From: a virus
Lineage: Duplodnaviria; Caudoviricetes
Strand: one strand, 5' to 3'
IMG/VR virus record: IMGVR_UViG_3300006921_000023
Coordinates: 1 to 52,236 of that record
Length of the DNA stretch: 52,236 nucleotides
Each line of letters begins with the position of its first letter. Position 1 is the stretch's first letter. The position numbers and the translations under genes were made by a program. Below, piece after piece: positions 11,301 through 50,924 of the stretch. Below the pieces are notes generated by a model. That model did no database searches. It saw only the letters and a program-made list of their open reading frames with translations, and was not told the DNA's origin.

Positions 11301-12726
11301 TATTTGTAGTAAAAGTCATATCATTAGTTGTGACTCCAATCCGGTTGTAATTAGTACCAGAATTTGAATCTGCTATAACGATACCACTTCCTGCGTCCGT
11401 ACTTTCAAACCTTGCTACATAATCTAGAGCTGTGGAGAAAACAGCTGCTGGGTGTCCTGTGTCTACGCTTACTTCAAGTCCTGCTTCTCCTGTTGTTACT
11501 ATATCTAATTTAGACGAAGGAGATGTTGTTCCTATACCAATTCGTTGATTTATAGCATCTCCATAAAGATATGTGGCTTCTTGTACTCCCCAAAAACTAC
11601 CACTTATAAACCTAATATTTCTCGATCCATCTATCCTGAAGCCTATTGCATTATTGTGTCGAAATATTGCAGATTCATCGTGATCATAATATGTTTGAGA
11701 TCCTGATTTGAATATTCTTGAGCCTCCGTGATTAGAAGTTCTCATTGTGTGGAAGTTTATACCAGCGCTTTTGGTGTTATCATCAGTACCTACATTTATG
11801 AATGCATGGGCTCCTGATGCAGATACTTGTATATATGTATCGCTTGCATGACCAGCTCCTGATTGAGATGTCGCTGCTTCTCCTATAAACAGTCTATCTG
11901 ATAGTTGTACACGACCAGTGAATTCTCCCGCTTCAAATGAGCCGGTTCCTCCAGCTTTTAGTCCTAACGATGCGGATAGTGCACTCATCGATACCATTCC
12001 ATGAAAATAACTATCATCATCTGTGACAGTCAAATTACCAGATACTTCTATACTTCCAGTAAATTTATGAACATCAGTCGATTCATCACCAAATTCAGAA
12101 TTACCAGTTGAGTATTGTACAGATGTAGATACAATTGTTGTATGAAATTCATCAGCTGTAACGATTCCTTCACAAAAGATATCTCCTCCTGCGTATATAT
12201 CAGCACTTGATGATATTGTTCCTATAACTTCTAATGCTTCTCCTGGTGTTGCTGTGTTAATACCGATTTTATTATCATATGATGCATCTCCACCAATAAA
12301 AAGCGTTGCTGTTCCTGATCCAATTGCACCTGGCATGAATGATAGATTTGAGTTAACTAAACCTAATTGCCTTGATGCAACTAAATTACCGTCAGATGTA
12401 AATATATTACCAGATGAACTATCTACAGTACCAGAACCTATTACTCCCAGCTGCATTGTTCCATCCTCTTGGACGTATACGGTTTTGACATTTCCTGTTG
12501 ATGGATATGTTCCTCCAAGACCTGTGAGTCTAACTGCATTGGATGCAGATATTGGACCATCAAATATTGCCGATCCTGATATGATTTCTAGATTACCGTG
12601 AGATTGTAATCCTCCAGACGCAATCGTTAATCCTAATGGATTATCTGTTCCTTCCTTGAATTGTAAATTACTTCCCGATGAAGTAAATTTATATTTATGT
12701 CCTGCGCCTAATTTTATTATTGCCAT
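8377..12726 (-). CDS. Long tail fibre protein (1449 aa) with probable C-terminal intramolecular-chaperone (peptidase G2-like) domain
   Basis: Repeated (R/K)(I/V)GI(G/N)TxxP...L(D/H/E)(V/I) fibre units. The C-terminus GTIVVW...VMGV...GEVKEGDFLTTS..IGHA...GTVIAQALE resembles fibre chaperone domains. Confidence 0.75.
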   Translation of the reverse strand: MAIIKLGAGHKYKFTSSGSNLQFKEGTDNPLGLTIASGGLQSHGNLEIISGSAIFDGPISASNAVRLTGLGGTYPSTGNVKTVYVQEDGTMQLGVIGSGTVDSSSGNIFTSDGNLVASRQLGLVNSNLSFMPGAIGSGTATLFIGGDASYDNKIGINTATPGEALEVIGTISSSADIYAGGDIFCEGIVTADEFHTTIVSTSVQYSTGNSEFGDESTDVHKFTGSIEVSGNLTVTDDDSYFHGMVSMSALSASLGLKAGGTGSFEAGEFTGRVQLSDRLFIGEAATSQSGAGHASDTYIQVSASGAHAFINVGTDDNTKSAGINFHTMRTSNHGGSRIFKSGSQTYYDHDESAIFRHNNAIGFRIDGSRNIRFISGSFWGVQEATYLYGDAINQRIGIGTTSPSSKLDIVTTGEAGLEVSVDTGHPAAVFSTALDYVARFESTDAGSGIVIADSNSGTNYNRIGVTTNDMTFTTNNVEKLSISADGIISASGHISASGNIIIEGGLVVDNSTILRKYTPGWTNAPNHDIIYTGWLANTGDYMSFKAAGNSTSGHGVMMIGDDLFAIGKTNVETASPVADSATAPFNEENWLLADSSGLTVDGNITASADISGSGTGSFSGGGIFGLHSAVGIGTISPIYTLDVEGRNGINSVARFKSTNDKALIIIEDDDTAFSLISKDAKFHIGTGSTDYENFTVWPTQKRVGINTTAPDKPLHVISSDDTPFRVESSDGLTGISFKDNSDDNAIYYSGANDAFYVPTKIALGNTPTGITSESLDIYGGLAMSETPSIGTRRILYMGGETETRGPFNPIVGAIQKSGKCLFLDKEFADGKNDVQVYNNAGSGYVSHSWQPWSQQLADDFFGFSPNGASLTGSVAPNGSGNVIQITYDGGAAVPGDGGFYQVYTGEGKTVVQVFQALIPEGRYLTLAENSQGRDKDSYWLTNTMGTGKWEWYARVNHVGSYELEGHSFSSAGHVYLDEAGPATVWYLASCTAYDMTDQDVDVYRRVGIGTIDPENTLHVKDGDSGQTPDVGYQLTVENSAIAGIEILGGTGHSSRVTFGDSGNGSIGMIKYDHTTDNMFFRTNGTEHTHITSTGIISTSNDIIIESSDPTLYFKDTDGTYNGYVGASNEILYLRGNASGQDVEIRSTNYDNAIFVDDSTQRVGIGLNNPESTLSILGDISASGTIYAARFESSGSATKIDIVDDMIITGSILANGSGSFTNITASLDGVHVSGSVDIILENGPAAFIKTKIGSSDEYHLRNDGDAFQLYNETDDRKEWVADGAGGIGIGVATPHANGFALQVSGAIGTFGDNEHALGTKAVRFSDVFAVQTTVGAIFETGLATEGIGELETGTIVVWKNGKLVASYKEQDKMVMGVTQEGKDEPIILGAEPILVTGEVKEGDFLTTSDKIGHAKAQPDEYLLRTGTVIAQALESSNGESNLIKGMIRKL

Positions 12727-12727
12727 A

Positions 12728-15700
12728 TTATAATCCCGCTGAGCTCTCGTTTACTATCGCAACATTATATTGAATTGCATTTGAAATACTTGCATTCCAA
12801 AATTTATTTGCATTAACTGCCATAGTGGCTCCTGCTACTCCACCTGAATCTGGATCGATGGATATTGCAGCTGTCACTTCTTCCCCTACTTCAATGTTAA
12901 CATCTACGTTTGTTGCATTTGTAACATCTGGTGCTAGTATCCCTTTTATCACTAACGGATCAACTGAATTAGTTTCTGTTATTATTACGTTAAGTGCTTG
13001 CTTTCCTCCTGCCGATCCATCTAGCACTAATGTATATCCACCGGCAGAGGTAGAAGCTGATAGATATTGAGTAAAGTTACTATTTTTAACCTCTACCACT
13101 TGTCCTGATAATACTGATGCTTCCAGTTTACCGGTTAAGAATACATTTTCTCCAAACAATCCATGACCAGGATTTGTTCCTACTTTAGATTCATTTAATC
13201 CAGATAAATCTCCCAGTCTAACTTTTGTTTCTAAATCATAATGTCCACTACCAGTTCTTTCTACTATATCAATAAATGGAGTATCAGAACCGGAAGTTGC
13301 ATTCATAAATATAAATCCTTGATCCTCGGATGCATATGAAACTATTACTTGTGCAGCTGACATTGTTGGAATTGTATGGCCGTTCAAACTTCTCGATACG
13401 TGAAGCGTTGTAGGGTTTGTTGAACTACTATAAACTTGCATAAGTTCTAATGTAAATCCTGTGTCTTCTACTGACTTACAAATTGCATATTCTCCAGCTG
13501 TCCATCCACCTACACTTTCTACTTCAAATGACGCTGATGGAACTCCGTGTACGTTTCCATTCATACTTCCTGATAAATAATCACTACCAGTAGTTACTGT
13601 AGCATTTGCAATTATTACTGCTCCTCCTACCGCACTAATTGTATCTTTTTCAAATACAGCTGTTCTTAGTGTACCTCTAATTTTTGCATTTTCAAATTCA
13701 GCCGTTCCATCACTATCTATCTTCCATCCTTTACCTACACCAGCTCCAAGTAAAGAAGATTCAAAGTTTGCCGTTTGCATTGTTCCTGATGAGCTCAATA
13801 TTATATTACTCGAGCTAAGGAATGTATCACCTATCGCCCATCCACCAATCGTACCTCCAGCTTCTGCTGTTATCTGACCTTGCATTATAACATTACCTTC
13901 TGAGTCTAAATGGAATCCGGAAGAAGATATTTCTATGTTTCCTAAAGCTCCTGAGATAAATTGTGATGTCTCACTTCCGACAAAGAATTTTTGAGCTCGT
14001 ATGTCTAATTCGGATGGATCGGTTCGGAATCTAAAATAGCTACTACTATCCAATACCATCTCCATTCCAATACCTTTATAATCATCTCCTGAGCCATCAT
14101 ATATTGTGGATCCAATCGATCCTGACCACATTAGGATTCCAGATCCCGAACCAACTGATGATGAATGGAATCCTGGATATACTGGGTTTACCGTTCGTAG
14201 ATATGCAGATGCATTACCACCGATTACAAAACCTGAAGCTGCTAGATCAGGTCCTATATCCATTGTACCTGCAAGGAGTCCATTACTAATGTAGGTATTT
14301 CCTCCTACAAAATCTACTTGGGTATATTGGAGATCAACCTCCGACTTAACATTATGCGGATTGTATAATTCAAATTTGAAATCTAATAGATCATCATTAT
14401 GTGTAGTTGGGACGTGTGATACTATCTGAAACTGTTCTGGTGTAAATCCATTACTAGTTTCTGCTTTTAGGGATATGTCTGCAAAATGAATTTCGTAGCC
14501 AGCTTCTACTTTGAATACTGGTTTACCCATTCCATCACGAGATGCTGCGAAGTGATATTCTGAGGTGAATTCTTCTCTTGATGAAGCACTTGATTCCATG
14601 CTTCCTACAAACAATCCAATATCAGGATCGGGGTCTTGAACTGATCCATAGAATCCCGATCCTGATAAGAACACTTTGACACTCAACGGATCGTAGCCAG
14701 ATGTAATTGATGAGTCTGGTGTTCTTTTTAGGATTGATTTATATGATAATCGATACAGAGTTCCTTTTTCAAACTCTACATAATCTTTTGTTGTTACTAA
14801 TACGTAATCATCACCTGATATATTTCCTGACATTGATACTAATAAAGCATTAGCAAATTCTGAATCGTCTCGCGAGAGTGATGGTATCAATGCACCATTG
14901 CCAGCTTCAGCTTGCCAATATGTAGACGGAGTCGTATTAGATTCCATTACTCCCCACGGTGCCTTCATAGTAGTACTTCCTGTATCTACCATAAGCTCTG
15001 ATGCTTCTAGTACATGGTCTCCAATTATTTGATATTCATCTACAGTCCCATTACTTTTTATTTTAGTAACAATTCTATGAACATCTCCTGCTACCGGTAT
15101 TAGATTCTTAAAATCACATACTGCATACGAGTGCGAATTTTCCGTATCTGTATATGTTGGTGGATTGGAATGCGTTATTTGCATTGCACTTGTATTAAAT
15201 CCTTCTACAACATTAGACGTTAATACTGATGTTGGGAGTGGAGTAGGTCCTCCTTTTGTAGCATTTGGGACTACTGTAGATACCGTTATTACTTCAAACG
15301 GAGTACTTAATCGAACTTGAGTTGAATTTATCACGGAATGAATTGTACTTGTATAATTAAGCGTTTCACCAGGATAAAGATCGTTTGAGTTTATTGATGG
15401 ATAAAGACCTTGAATTAAATCCGCCTTAAATTTAACAACTGCTCCTTCCATTGATGCTGAGAAATATGGAGATGCAACATTGAGTCGTGGCAACGATACC
15501 TGCCCACCTTTTGAATTTATTTCATCTGCAGATGGATTAACTGGCATTATTCCAGCTGGATGGCTGTATGATGCAGATTGGATGGATGATGTGACTCTAG
15601 TGCCTATATACGATGAAGAGAAATAAGTTCTTATCTTTTCAGCTACTCTTACCTTTGGCATGTGAGAGAATACTATAGGATCGGTGTTAGGTGCAAATGG

Positions 15701-16221: not shown

Positions 16222-16229
16222 ATAAATAT
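16222..16229 (-). promoter_or_regulatory. Putative phage-specific (late) promoter motif ATATTTAT
   Basis: CATATTTATTAT in a short intergenic gap ~33 nt upstream of ATG 16189. The same motif recurs upstream of several other genes. Confidence 0.6.
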
Positions 16230-16230
16230 G

Positions 16231-25503: not shown

Positions 25504-25511
25504 ATAAATAT
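25504..25511 (-). promoter_or_regulatory. Putative late promoter motif ATATTTAT
   Basis: CATATTTATATT, intergenic, ~28 nt upstream of ATG 25476. Confidence 0.6.
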
Positions 25512-25553
25512 GTCGTTGTATAGAAAAACTTATATATATACACTCCTATGTTA

Positions 25554-38096: not shown

Positions 38097-38104
38097 ATAA
38101 ATAT
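38097..38104 (-). promoter_or_regulatory. Putative late promoter motif ATATTTAT
   Basis: ATATTTATATAAC directly before the AGGAG RBS of 38079. Confidence 0.6.
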
Positions 38105-38120
38105 ATGTTACATTAAGTTT

Positions 38121-41542: not shown

Positions 41543-41550
41543 ATAAATAT
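41543..41550 (-). promoter_or_regulatory. Putative late promoter motif ATATTTAT
   Basis: CATATTTATTAT, intergenic, ~24 nt upstream of ATG 41519. Confidence 0.6.
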
Positions 41551-41563
41551 GGAGCTGGTTAGA

Positions 41564-44017: not shown

Positions 44018-44629
44018 TTATATTATTTGGTCAATAACTTTTATTTCTAATGCTTTATCAGCTGTTAGCCAGTAATCCGTTCTTTGTATCTGATCCCATT
44101 CCTCAGCTGATAATGTACTTTTCTCACTCAATATTGTATTAGACATTTTGTCTATTTCAGATACATGGTGTATACTTGCTTTAACATCAGCCTGTTTACC
44201 TTGTAGCCAAGTAGATGATTGGTGAAACATAATTGTTGAATGTTTACTAGCATATCTAGCTCCTGTTCCACTAGCCAATATGACTGCAGCTGCTGAGAAA
44301 GCTTTTCCTCTACATATTGTATTTACTGGAACGCTTAGTGATTTCATATAATCTATGATTGCCAACATTTCGTATACACATCCACCTTCCGAGTTAATTA
44401 TCATATTGATCGGTTGATCGATAGTCTCTTCCGTTCTGTTATTTAATATAGTTCGAATACGAGTCATCATATCGAATAGCGTGTACCCATCAATCTCTCC
44501 AACTAAATAAATAACGCTATCCTGTATGTCGAATGCGTATGTTATTTCATTGAACGTTTCTTTATTAGAGTTATCTTGTTTAATATCCTCTTTTCTGATT
44601 GGAGTGGGTTTATCATCGTATATTGACAT
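44018..44629 (-). CDS. clpP: ClpP-family serine protease
   Basis: IYLVGEI, INSEGG, GKAFSAAAVILASG (Ser), IMFHQ (His), RTDYWLTADKALE..ID (Asp): an intact triad. Confidence 0.92.
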   Translation of the reverse strand: MSIYDDKPTPIRKEDIKQDNSNKETFNEITYAFDIQDSVIYLVGEIDGYTLFDMMTRIRTILNNRTEETIDQPINMIINSEGGCVYEMLAIIDYMKSLSVPVNTICRGKAFSAAAVILASGTGARYASKHSTIMFHQSSTWLQGKQADVKASIHHVSEIDKMSNTILSEKSTLSAEEWDQIQRTDYWLTADKALEIKVIDQII

Positions 44630-45410: not shown

Positions 45411-45438
45411 AAGTCTTCCATTTTTATATTTATACTTA

Positions 45439-45468
45439 AATATACAAAATTATTTTGGATTATGCAAC
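45439..45468 (-). promoter_or_regulatory. Host-RNAP-type promoter GTTG-N20-TATATT
   Basis: GTTG CATAATCCAAAATAATTTTG TATATT, intergenic. Confidence 0.7.
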
Positions 45469-45945: not shown

Positions 45946-45960
45946 CTGTAACTTTTATTA

Positions 45961-45990
45961 AATATACATAATTTTTTTCAAACAACCAAC
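45961..45990 (-). promoter_or_regulatory. Host-RNAP-type promoter GTTG-N20-TATATT
   Basis: GTTG GTTGTTTGAAAAAAATTATG TATATT, intergenic. Confidence 0.7.
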
Positions 45991-47315: not shown

Positions 47316-47368
47316 AGTTTTTCTCCTTTATAACTTTTATTCATATAATATACATATGTATGTTTATG

Positions 47369-47398
47369 AAAAAAGAATAGAGCATTTCTGCTCCATTC
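47369..47398 (-). terminator. Rho-independent terminator after hsp20-DUF2061
   Basis: GAATGGAGCA-GAAA-TGCTCTATTC-TTTTTT: 10-bp stem with one G-U pair, GNRA loop and U-tract. Confidence 0.85.
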
Positions 47399-47408
47399 CG
47401 TATAACTC

Positions 47409-47424
47409 CAGTAGGTTGGATGTC
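47409..47424. repeat. Inverted repeat arm (3' UTR side), pairs with 48112..48127
   Basis: The + strand cagtaggttggatgtc matches the reverse complement of 48112..48127 (cagtaggttgggtgtc) at 15 of 16 positions. Confidence 0.85.
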
Positions 47425-47426
47425 AT

Positions 47427-47636
47427 TTACTTGTCTTTAGTACCAAATTTACACTTTAACCAAATACGTTCATGGAAGTAATATAGAATAAATTTAGTAA
47501 ATAATTCTAATGCTCCAATCTTTAAGCCTACTGTTGCACTACCAGTTATGATCCATCCTAGAGCCATTGTGTCCAATGTTCCTACGATTCGCCAGCTGAT
47601 TGTCTTTAGTAGACTTCTTAATTTAGTTACGTTCAT
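47427..47636 (-). CDS. DUF2061-family small membrane protein
   Basis: RSLLKTISWRIVGTLDT...LYYFHERIW signature. Confidence 0.85.
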   Translation of the reverse strand: MNVTKLRSLLKTISWRIVGTLDTMALGWIITGSATVGLKIGALELFTKFILYYFHERIWLKCKFGTKDK

Positions 47637-47649
47637 TCGATACCTTCCT

Positions 47650-48081
47650 TTATTTAATTGTAACCGCCTTTGGCTTACTTTCCTCTGAAAGTGGTACTCT
47701 TACTTTCAACAATCCATTAGCCATCGTTGCTTTTATTTTGGTAAGATCGAATTTCGGACTTACCTTCCATCCCATATCAAAGCTTCTCCTAGCTATACCT
47801 TTATGAATATAGTCAGGTGCTTCAACATCTGATGGGTTTGATTCTACACTTGGTTTTTTATAAGCAACCTTCAAAGTATTGCTTTCTATTGTGATATCTA
47901 TATCACTTTTTTCCAACCCGACGCATGCAATGTCAAAACATAGTTCGTCCTCTTGTAGAAATACATCTACTGGGTAACTAGGTTTCTGTTCCTGCAATCC
48001 GCGGAACGATGCTTCGCCGTCAAAAAAATTTCTGAATAATAGGTCCGTTGGAAAGAACCTCTCTTGAAAGAGTGTTGTCAT
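47650..48081 (-). CDS. Small heat-shock protein (Hsp20 / alpha-crystallin)
   Basis: YPVDV, DIACVGLEKSDIDI, YIHKGIARRSF, ATMANGLLKV; AAGGAG RBS. Confidence 0.93.
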   Translation of the reverse strand: MTTLFQERFFPTDLLFRNFFDGEASFRGLQEQKPSYPVDVFLQEDELCFDIACVGLEKSDIDITIESNTLKVAYKKPSVESNPSDVEAPDYIHKGIARRSFDMGWKVSPKFDLTKIKATMANGLLKVRVPLSEESKPKAVTIK

Positions 48082-48111
48082 ATTTAATCTCCTTAAATGA
48101 TTTTATGTTAA

Positions 48112-48127
48112 GACACCCAACCTACTG
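48112..48127. repeat. Inverted repeat arm (5' UTR of hsp20), pairs with 47409..47424
   Basis: The + strand reads gacacccaacctactg. Confidence 0.85.
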
Positions 48128-48129
48128 TA

Positions 48130-48576
48130 TTAGTTGCCTTCAATAATAAATATGTACGTATGTACTTTTTCCTGTTTTTTATTTAATCTAAATCTATACT
48201 CAACGAATTTGTTTCCATGGCTCTCCATTAGATCTTTCATCTCCTTGAGCTTTGGCAGATTTTTAGCTGATAGCGCTACCATGTTGTTTACCATAGTAAC
48301 GTTAATCATATCTGATTCGATCATTCCCTTTAATCGTTTAGTATCCTTCACAGGGATTTTTTCTATAGGCGCTTGAAAGTCTGGTATTATATTATCTTTC
48401 AATTTTATATCACCAGACTCAATCCACTCCTCTATATTTTTGAATGCTTTATCTTGGCGCTTCTGAGGTAGACGATCTAACCATTCCCAGATTTCTTCTT
48501 CTGAGAACATCCAGAATTCTGAGTCTGGATTTAGTACATCTTCGATAGTCCATTTGTCTTTTGCCATGTTTAACAT
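48130..48576 (-). CDS. Hypothetical protein (likely start at 48567, MAKDKW)
   Basis: ORF immediately downstream of the tmRNA; AGGA lies before the second ATG. Confidence 0.6.
   Translation of the reverse strand: MLNMAKDKWTIEDVLNPDSEFWMFSEEEIWEWLDRLPQKRQDKAFKNIEEWIESGDIKLKDNIIPDFQAPIEKIPVKDTKRLKGMIESDMINVTMVNNMVALSAKNLPKLKEMKDLMESHGNKFVEYRFRLNKKQEKVHTYIFIIEGN
48146..48153 (-). promoter_or_regulatory. Putative promoter motif ATATTTAT upstream of hsp20
   Basis: CATATTTATTAT at the 3' end of the upstream ORF, just before the inverted-repeat arm. Confidence 0.5.
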
Positions 48577-48589
48577 CCTATTTTAATAT

Positions 48590-48816
48590 TACCAACCTCC
48601 ACCGGGCTTTAACGACTTGCCCTATTAAATGCCGTTGGGTCAGGGTGCCTAAGCCGCCATTGCCATTTCAACTTGTTCGCCAGTTACGCGTTGACCTTCC
48701 TCTTATCCTTATCACCCTGTCAAATCCAGTCACCCCCATATCATTGTTCTATTTAGTGGAGGTGGAGGGTATCGAACCCTCGTCCAAAAGTGCAGCTAAT
48801 AAAAGTACTAGCGGTC
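48590..48816 (-). ncRNA. ssrA: Circularly permuted (two-piece) tmRNA; outer ends approximate
   Basis: On the minus strand: acceptor piece ...GGAC-GAGGG-TTCGATA-CCCTC-CACCTCC-A (ends 48757), a 19-nt intervening segment, then a coding piece starting GGGGGTG-ACTGGATTTGAC at 48737. The 7-bp acceptor stem has G3-U70, followed by a tag ORF and a pseudoknot. Confidence 0.9.
48649..48681 (-). other. tmRNA tag reading frame GEQVEMAMAA*
   Basis: TAACT-GGC GAA CAA GTT GAA ATG GCA ATG GCG GCT TAG, ending in the typical Ala-Ala degron. The resume codon is inferred. Confidence 0.8.
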
Positions 48817-49185
48817 ATTATCATCTTCAATATCCCAATTGGGATCAAAATCCATAAGATCTGCAGGCAACCAATTAGATAATGCTTTCTGTATGGATTT
48901 GAGTCCACTTTTAGATTTCTTTATCTTAACTAGTTCTGCACATCTCTCATACATTTCTATGTCAGGTGCTGAATAATATTCAATGAGTGTTTCTATTAAC
49001 TCATTCATATCAGTATCATCATCCATTGGATTGATGATCATAAGCACCCTACCTTTCCTTACTGATATAGAATCGTAAGTATCTTGTTTAGTGATCAATC
49101 TATACATATTGTCCATAGCTTCTTCGTCGATCAAATCGACGTTTGCAGGATCGTTTATGTCATAGTTATGTTTCATCTTCTGCAT
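48808..49185 (-). CDS. Hypothetical protein with UVR-like motif (EMYERCAELVKI)
   Basis: Resembles the E-x-Y-E-x-A-A-x-L pattern of UvrB/C (UVR) domains. Its last codons overlap the tmRNA acceptor piece. The start may be 49176. Confidence 0.55.
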   Translation of the reverse strand: MQKMKHNYDINDPANVDLIDEEAMDNMYRLITKQDTYDSISVRKGRVLMIINPMDDDTDMNELIETLIEYYSAPDIEMYERCAELVKIKKSKSGLKSIQKALSNWLPADLMDFDPNWDIEDDNDR

Positions 49186-49193
49186 ATAAATAT
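49186..49193 (-). promoter_or_regulatory. Putative promoter motif ATATTTAT
   Basis: Lies in the 21-nt gap before the UVR-like ORF and tmRNA. Confidence 0.5.
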
Positions 49194-49206
49194 CTATTAG
49201 TAAGTG

Positions 49207-50537: not shown

Positions 50538-50559
50538 GTTGTTTGTTTTTGTTATTACT

Positions 50560-50579
50560 ACTTTAGTGTTTACTAAAGT
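50560..50579. promoter_or_regulatory. Perfect inverted repeat ACTTTAGT-N4-ACTAAAGT (5' hairpin or operator)
   Basis: 8-bp stem just downstream of the promoter -10 element. Confidence 0.45.
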
Positions 50580-50587
50580 TTATCTTT

Positions 50588-50617
50588 AATATACTAAATA
50601 TTTTCCAGAAAGTCAAC
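50588..50617 (-). promoter_or_regulatory. Host-RNAP-type promoter GTTG-N20-TATATT (TTGACT-N17-TATATT)
   Basis: GTTG ACTTTCTGGAAAATATTTAG TATATT, intergenic. Confidence 0.75.
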
Positions 50618-50634
50618 AGTTAGTATGTTTTATT

Positions 50635-50790
50635 TTAAGATTTTTTCTTATTGAATTTTCTTAGATTTTCTTCCAGCTTATTGTTTGGGCTATAAGCTTC
50701 TGCTATATAGTTTAATATAGTCCATGCTAAACATATTACTATAATTCCTACAAATGTCATTCCGAATATCACTGCGATTGTATCCATCAT
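50635..50790 (-). CDS. Small single-TM protein (51 aa, MMDTIAVIFG...FNKKKS), not in ORF track
   Basis: Manual translation: hydrophobic helix plus basic tail; fills the gap. Confidence 0.6.
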   Translation of the reverse strand: MMDTIAVIFGMTFVGIIVICLAWTILNYIAEAYSPNNKLEENLRKFNKKKS

Positions 50791-50795
50791 CTTAT

Positions 50796-50924
50796 TTATT
50801 TTTTGAATTTACTTTTAATTTTATACATTACATATCCTACTACGGGTGTGCCATACAATAAGGTTAGCAAACTAGGATGTGGCTCACCACACGCTCCTGT
50901 TAAATGTTTTAGAAACTCTATCAT
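50796..50924 (-). CDS. Small membrane peptide (42 aa, MIEFLKHLTGACGEPHPSLL...KFKK), not in ORF track
   Basis: ATGA overlap with the ligase stop; H-x4-CGE-x-HP motif followed by a hydrophobic segment. Confidence 0.65.
   Translation of the reverse strand: MIEFLKHLTGACGEPHPSLLTLLYGTPVVGYVMYKIKSKFKK

Follow-up and report, generated by a model that had tools for sequence, protein, structure and literature searches.

The virus record IMGVR_UViG_3300006921_000023 from IMG/VR (Duplodnaviria; Caudoviricetes) carries an hsp20 gene whose message very probably contains a selected, conserved RNA helix, in which a segment of the leader pairs with a segment of the trailer. We analyzed the complete record of 52,236 nucleotides (nt), referred to here as the window, and compared its hsp20 locus with those of relatives. 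The conclusion comes from sequence comparison: the pairing recurs at the same place in every relative that could be scored, the paired segments change in a compensatory manner, and the single-sided changes that are tolerated are mostly those that keep a pair in the messenger RNA (mRNA).

The helix encloses hsp20 (47650-48081, minus strand), which encodes a protein of 143 amino acids (aa; Pfam PF00011, E 7.7e-12). The parts of this unit described below are all on the minus strand. The 5′ arm, CAGUAGGUUGGGUGUC (48112-48127), begins 2 nt after the stop codon of an upstream 148-aa open reading frame (ORF) and ends 17 nt ahead of the AAGGAG Shine-Dalgarno sequence of hsp20 (48089-48094). The 3′ arm, GACAUCCAACCUACUG (47409-47424), starts 2 nt after the stop codon of a second enclosed gene, which encodes a 69-aa small membrane protein of the DUF2061 family (47427-47636; Pfam PF09834, E 1.7e-22). 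An inverted-repeat search gave 15 Watson-Crick pairs and one G.U pair over the 16 positions, with 687 nt between the arms. This agrees with an earlier reading of the sequence alone (the sequence-only reading), which had noticed a 16-base pair (bp) leader/trailer complementarity about 690 nt apart. The same reading had described the lone DNA mismatch correctly, as G48116 opposite U47420 makes a G.U pair on the mRNA (minus) strand and an A.C mismatch on the plus strand. A 4-bp extension, UAAU (48129-48132), pairs with 47403-47406 across a small internal loop, both in RNAduplex and in the minimum-free-energy fold of the 773-nt unit, and the predicted stability of the window helix is about -27 to -31 kcal/mol. 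The arms are single copy, with only two matches in the whole record at up to three mismatches, and the inverted-repeat search of the window found no local partner for either of them.

Taken alone, a repeat of this kind is not significant. The window contains two inverted repeats of 16 nt with no more than one mismatch within 1.5 kb, and 60 dinucleotide shuffles contained a mean of 1.62, with two or more in 25 of the 60. The reality of the hsp20 repeat therefore rests on conservation among relatives. The only other such repeat (11791-11806 and 13298-13313), an AT-rich one within long ORFs, does not exceed chance. When all 91 intergenic pairs were scanned, no second gene-flanking helix was found in the window. 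Three pairs of long AT-rich regions outranked the hsp20 pair in that scan (-69 to -38 kcal/mol), and we rejected them as length artefacts. One of the regions involved, 50538-50920, is only an apparent inter-ORF gap (383 nt). It holds small ORFs below the 55-aa cut-off, some of them hydrophobic-looking, and is probably coding.

A search with the hsp20 protein identified 40 loci in IMG/VR viral contigs and 80 in metagenome contigs, some of the latter being identical to viral contigs under another name. Individual loci are given below by number (L003 and so on). The leader/trailer duplex was detected in all 41 loci formed by the window and the 40 IMG/VR relatives, with RNAduplex energies of -23 to -41 kcal/mol, and in all 32 distinct loci the cognate pairing outscored each of 100 leader shuffles. 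When the metagenome loci were included, 117 of 121 could be scored (four lacked flanks), and the helix was found in all 117, with 43 distinct arm pairs. Searching with the 377-aa gene downstream of hsp20 revealed another hsp20 clade (42-60% identity), from which yet more loci were reached. With these further clades, 146 of 150 fetched loci could be scored and all 146 have the helix at the same place, with 54 distinct arm pairs in about eight sequence families. The sequence-only reading had held that arms without conservation would speak against its proposal, and the opposite was found.

The arms of distant hsp20 clades (40-58% amino-acid identity) are unrelated in sequence and occupy the same place. 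One example from the clade that we refer to as clade D has a 12-bp GC-rich core within a 29-bp helix (11+6+12), and other cores occur in three more groups, down to 40-45% identity. Arm length ranges from 10 to 29 bp across the loci, and arm families follow hsp20 divergence. Among the closer relatives, the 5′ arm is identical in L003, L004, L047, L050 and L051, and it varies with compensation in L048 and L049. For clade D, ungapped helix scores of 10-14 show no clear excess over the shuffle maxima of 10-13 in 330-nt windows; this clade is supported by its duplex energies, by folds of whole units and by the position of the helix. Similarly, the L255 duplex (-22.1 kcal/mol) is within the shuffle range (minimum -28.8), yet an 18-bp helix is present at the homologous place.

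The hsp20 proteins of the cultured phages HTVC115P, P-SSM3, S-PM2 and S-CAM9 (L043-L046) share only about 30% identity with the window protein. None of these four cultured loci has a leader/trailer duplex beyond the shuffle range, and by inspection hsp20 is followed by an ordinary GC-rich hairpin in three of the four. The helix thus does not accompany phage hsp20 genes in general. The four cultured loci share a motif of their own, ACTCGCTTA, about 10-25 nt upstream of hsp20 and just before the ribosome site. It is shared although these proteins are only distantly related, and it is absent from the clade of the window.

Covariation in the arms supports the pairing. The MAFFT alignment of the 41 units did not align the arms across families, so pairs were counted on two sub-alignments comprising 19 and 16 of the 41 rows (the window, L003-L006 and L009 are in neither), and the counts refer to sequences, not to independent events. 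In group A (16 rows, 14 distinct), 94.8% of cells are paired, compared with 32-50% when the partner is slid. Among the changes are doubles from G-C to A-U and from C-G to U-A, as well as three U.G pairs. No shuffle of 500 reached the covariation score of this group, and 13 of 500 reached its number of double-change pairs. In group B (19 rows, 16 distinct), 86.4% of cells are paired versus 30-51% when slid, with an internal loop that misaligns two rows. One pair is G-C in nine rows and A-U in seven, with no unpaired cell, and another occurs as A-U, G.U and G-C. RNAalifold predicts the group B helix de novo, and its covariation score (0.107 versus 0.073) was exceeded by none of 500 shuffles; the count of double-change pairs was reached by 340 of 500.

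The family of the window shows the same kind of variation at short range. L050 has a perfect 16-bp helix, the window and L047 have one G.U pair, and L003, L004 and L051 have a G.U pair at another position. Both G.U pairs are present in L058 and L059, three occur in L052, and G-C is replaced by A-U in L048 and L049. Among the metagenome loci, we detected intermediates (G.U in L122, C.A in L062, and U.U in L032 beside U-A in L070 and L234) as well as double changes (A-U to G-C in L069, U-A to C-G in L120, and several changes each in L101, L124 and L237). The compensatory changes that the sequence-only reading had suggested looking for in related phages are thus present in groups A and B, in the family of the window and in the metagenome loci, and wobble intermediates accompany them. 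In L017 (2933-2963) and other group B loci we also noted a short local inverted repeat (ATGATTA ... TAATCAT or ATGTTA ... TAACAT) that flanks the 5′ arm. It is only partly conserved and could keep this arm in the loop of a hairpin until the 3′ arm has been transcribed.

The content of the helix varies. L047, which is the closest relative (94% identical protein), L003 and L004 are without DUF2061 and keep both arms, and in these loci the 3′ arm is 4-8 nt after the hsp20 stop codon. DUF2061 is located between hsp20 and the 3′ arm in L061, L079 and L083, which have group A arms, and in L148 and L158 of clade D. Because DUF2061 is either inside the helix or absent, the helix brackets a transcription unit and not hsp20 itself. 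The presence or absence of DUF2061 inside the helix is polymorphic in at least three arm families. A DUF2061 copy (90% identical) also occurs without hsp20 in L139, and no helix was found there.

Upstream of the 5′ arm in the window is a promoter-like box, CATATTTAT (48154-48146), that overlaps a -10-like TATTAT (48148-48143); the combined element (48143-48154) lies within the last codons of the upstream 148-aa ORF. Related boxes of the form (C/G/T)ATATTTAT precede the 5′ arm in most arm families, and the box is a candidate promoter element of this phage group. By hand count, 8 of 35 box matches on the coding strand fall within the 2.3% of the DNA that is intergenic, compared with 2 of 34 on the other strand. 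The 9-nt box is not enriched overall in the window, so that only this strand-specific intergenic excess is suggestive. Neither a degenerate 16-nt promoter motif nor the T4 late-promoter octamer is enriched in the window as a whole. Boxes of the (C/G/T)ATATTTAT form located just upstream of genes are at 16222-16230, 25504-25512, 38097-38105, 41543-41551, 45436-45444, 45958-45966, 48146-48154 and 49186-49194, and the box at 49194-49179 overlaps an annotated start codon.

At the other end of the unit, a terminator scan and folding identified a separate local intrinsic terminator (47368-47399) with an 11-pair stem (47399-47374), a 4-nt loop and a T-run, and this hairpin is conserved in L003 and L004. 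The arms of the window thus lie just inside a promoter-like box and a terminator, as the sequence-only reading had proposed. In the window the 3′ arm is followed by GGAGUUAUACGG with no U-run, and the local terminator 10 nt beyond the arm carries the U-run. Among the relatives, 78 of 117 loci have a T-run immediately next to the 3′ arm. We found no local terminator hairpin in L017 or L019, in both of which a T-run abuts the arm. For 52 distinct T-run contexts, folding the 80 nt ahead of the run pairs only 28% of the arm bases locally, with energies of -8.6 versus -22.3 kcal/mol for the long-range pairing. In most relatives, the long-range helix is thus the sole stem that could act as a terminator, since its 3′ arm is next to the U-run and a local hairpin is missing. 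The core helix of the sequence-only reading stands; that DUF2061 is optional, that the 3′ arm abuts a U-run in most relatives and that the element is shared by a large clade were no part of it.

The available RNA data are assembled metatranscriptome contigs, which cover parts of the unit; none spans both arms. Because they are contigs, neither their depth nor the parts that they leave uncovered carry information. One contig, from a 92%-identical relative, covers 47672-48135, and its end lies 8 nt ahead of the 5′ arm and the same distance beyond TATTAT. Two further studies contributed contigs that end, without loose ends, at 47408 and 47406, just 1-3 nt beyond the 3′ arm. The positions of these ends are weak hints as to where the message starts and stops.

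We lean toward the interpretation that the helix is an end-to-end clamp, which joins, defines and protects the ends of a discrete hsp20 mRNA. Both arms would then be on one transcript that starts near the promoter-like box, and the role of the helix would be a protective or a terminating one. A leader segment that lies a few bases downstream of the probable transcription start would pair with the trailer just ahead of the 3′ end, and the Shine-Dalgarno sequence, hsp20 and the optional DUF2061 would be looped out and still translatable. A paired 5′ end would be hidden from 5′-end-dependent nucleases and a paired 3′ end would block 3′ exonucleases. Where the U-run abuts the 3′ arm, the same helix may stand in for a terminator hairpin. 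In whole-unit folds, the helix is present in minimum-free-energy and centroid structures alike, and AAGGAG and AUG are unpaired in both. Three functions had been suggested by the sequence-only reading, of which protecting and closing the ends fits best, an RNase III site is a rival, and a temperature-sensitive regulator is rejected.

Several rival explanations were weighed against this clamp. Covariation alone does not prove an RNA helix, because complementary covariation would also be expected of two inverted binding sites for a single DNA-binding protein. What discriminates is the kind of single-sided change that is tolerated, and for this comparison both transition mismatches were scored alike and two Watson-Crick pairs were required on each side. 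Among the distinct internal mismatch contexts, 12 are of the G.U type on the mRNA strand, 3 are of the A.C type, in which only the opposite strand could wobble, and 7 are others (binomial p 0.035). Of 32 units, 25 have a sense duplex more stable than the antisense one, 6 show the reverse, and in 1 the two are equal. Together with conservation and covariation, the G.U excess bears out the expectation, drawn by the sequence-only reading from one position, that selection acts on the RNA. An element acting as DNA, be it the termini of a mobile hsp20 cassette, an inversion substrate or a pair of inverted operators for one protein, is thus highly unlikely, even though the genes that flank the cassette differ between arm families. 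The earlier suggestion that the arms might be repeats of a degenerate mobile cassette did not hold up: there is no target-site duplication at the arms (the outer flanks, ...CTAATA and GAGTTA..., differ), and there are no extra copies of the arms in the record. By inspection of ORF lists, hsp20 is co-oriented with the flanking ORFs in 40 of 40 IMG/VR loci. Moreover, arm families that track hsp20 divergence and arm lengths that vary from 10 to 29 bp do not fit such an element. Empty sites were also sought, as hsp20 might have entered the loop of a pre-existing hairpin. Used as a query, the upstream 148-aa ORF identified only two loci. The downstream 377-aa gene identified 62, with hsp20 in nine, and no arm-like hairpin was found at the hsp20-less sites of the remaining loci. 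For an RNA thermometer only the identity of the gene, a heat-shock gene, speaks. We consider it extremely improbable, as the helix lies away from the ribosome binding site, the Shine-Dalgarno sequence is unpaired regardless of it, and at physiological temperatures duplexes of -23 to -41 kcal/mol would stay closed. A gate of the hok type, in which the closed message would be translationally silent until 3′ trimming opened it, is very unlikely. End-to-end pairing of this type is established (PMC9841398), and a weak local hairpin around the 5′ arm is possible in nascent RNA. Against such a gate, the Shine-Dalgarno sequence and start codon are unpaired both in the closed fold and in folds of the first 141 nt, these nascent 5′ folds are no more stable than shuffles (z -0.3 to +0.7), and no anti-Shine-Dalgarno box was found in either arm.

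Two other explanations concern how the ends of the message are formed. RNase III sites separate the early messages of T7, and RNase III stalks flank ribosomal RNA (rRNA). The hsp20 helix could likewise be a processing stalk at which host RNase III cuts, freeing a monocistronic hsp20 message from a longer transcript. The helices reach 29 bp in clade D and 16+4 bp in the window, and co-transcription is plausible, as the upstream ORF ends 2 nt ahead of the 5′ arm. In addition, clade D and the L005 family have neither a U-run nor a local terminator and their next ORF starts at once, and therefore processing fits those loci better than termination. However, RNase III substrates have about two turns (at least 20 bp) of near-continuous double helix, and many members have only 11-14 contiguous pairs (in most, a helix of 10-19 bp). 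The promoter-like box directly upstream of the 5′ arm in most families and the U-run abutting the 3′ arm in 78 of 117 loci are also unexpected for a stalk, and the RNA contigs, which cannot define RNA ends, stop just outside the helix and not within it. We regard such processing as the main rival, with a rather low probability. It is also possible, though on balance improbable, that most members have a split intrinsic terminator whose upstream half is in the 5′ leader. Formation of the 3′ end and insulation of the downstream genes would then depend on a free leader arm. This arm might be lost through 5′ processing, or be covered, for instance by a ribosome that finishes translating the upstream ORF only 2 nt from it.

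Several observations weigh against the clamp, or against a terminating role within it. The family of the window has its own terminator, and the helix is therefore not needed for termination there; the L005 family and clade D, as noted, have no terminator feature at all next to the 3′ arm. The long-range loop is 687 nt in the window and about 480-700 nt in the relatives, unlike the short loop of an intrinsic terminator, and we know of no precedent for a hairpin with a 480-700-nt loop acting as one. Because the stop codon of the upstream ORF is 2 nt ahead of the 5′ arm, read-through transcripts or terminating ribosomes could occupy this arm. In most loci the hsp20 stop codon is only 1-10 nt ahead of the 3′ arm. 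The strand bias is modest (12 versus 3 contexts, with the antisense duplex favored in 6 of 32 units), cell counts are inflated by relatedness and by contigs common to both collections, and assembled RNA contigs cannot establish RNA ends.

All long ORFs of the record are on the minus strand, and the record is an IMG/VR virus fragment with an estimated completeness of about 30%. From 48400 to 47200, the order on this strand is the 148-aa ORF (ending at 48130), a 48-nt spacer, hsp20, DUF2061, a 111-nt spacer, a 58-aa ORF and the 377-aa ORF. A blastn search of the hsp20 region against cultured phages gave no match, and neither did a tblastn search with a 561-aa neighbor protein. Upstream of hsp20, between a 125-aa ORF and the 148-aa ORF, we identified a circularly permuted (two-piece) transfer-messenger RNA (tmRNA) gene at 48558-48848 (minus strand). 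ARAGORN predicts the tag GEQVEMAMAA for it, and Rfam RF04321 matches at 48640-48816 with 68.4 bits (gathering score 47). RNA contigs pile up on its tRNA-like part (48756-48788), with three differences, and because of these differences they are probably from other organisms. A ClpP protease gene (44018-44629, minus strand; PF00574, E 1.3e-31) is located a few genes downstream of hsp20 and the tmRNA gene. The three genes give this region a proteostasis-flavored character.

The pairing of message ends is characteristic of an entire clade of uncultured marine phages, and the natural covariation in its dozens of arm variants offers ample comparative material on the function of such pairing. The element marks the borders of a self-contained cassette for expression, made up of box, arm, one or more genes, second arm and U-run, and this cassette would be a candidate for an insulated and stabilized expression unit. 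If the helix does serve as a terminator stem, the definition of an intrinsic terminator would be widened, and both terminator finders and phage annotation would miss such sites. If the terminator is split, the two ends of the message would be coupled in a way that is undescribed for bacterial or phage terminators.

In the literature searched, we found no report of a leader/trailer helix on a phage hsp20 message. To our knowledge, long-range leader/trailer pairing has been documented for only a handful of bacterial messages, namely hbs, icaR and hok. In the processing stalks of rRNA, long-range pairing of the flanks encloses a whole gene, the helices are longer and cleavage is documented. The hsp20 flank pairing likewise encloses a whole gene, but its length is borderline in most members and cleavage by RNase III is putative. 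The 3′ untranslated region of icaR reportedly pairs with the Shine-Dalgarno region and triggers cleavage by RNase III, whereas the ribosome binding site of hsp20 is not involved in the pairing. Leader/trailer base pairing within this one mRNA of Staphylococcus aureus is described in PMC3868564. In Bacillus subtilis, 14 nt of the hbs mRNA leader are fully complementary to, and pair with, a segment immediately ahead of the terminator; this interaction, validated by compensatory mutants, modulates attack by nucleases (Braun, Durand and Condon, 2017; PMC5737220). The window resembles hbs in having a 16-bp leader/trailer helix with the 3′ arm ending 10 nt ahead of a local terminator. However, hbs is a cellular gene, whereas the hsp20 helix belongs to phages and persists throughout a large clade in which the arm sequences have turned over completely, and most hsp20 relatives have a 3′ arm that abuts the U-run without a local terminator hairpin. 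In the tac/fbi fold-back of the hok mRNA of plasmid R1, the 5′ end pairs with the 3′ end and stabilizes the closed full-length message, and in this closed state the ribosome binding site is sequestered until the 3′ end is trimmed (PMC9841398). Closure of the hsp20 message instead leaves the ribosome binding site unpaired in the predicted fold, and hsp20 has no known antisense partner. The PeSL cassettes of T4-type phages combine a promoter with a local stem-loop, and small genes in variable regions are insulated by these promoter and terminator signals of their own (PMC2839356; PMC4122927). As with PeSL, the neighbors of the hsp20 cassette differ between lineages, but PeSL elements are local hairpins at many intergenic sites, and the hsp20 half-stems are single copy and 480-700 nt apart. 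In combination, these comparisons relate the hsp20 helix, which we regard as real, conserved and acting at the RNA level with a function that we infer, to the known but rare group of leader/trailer pairings.

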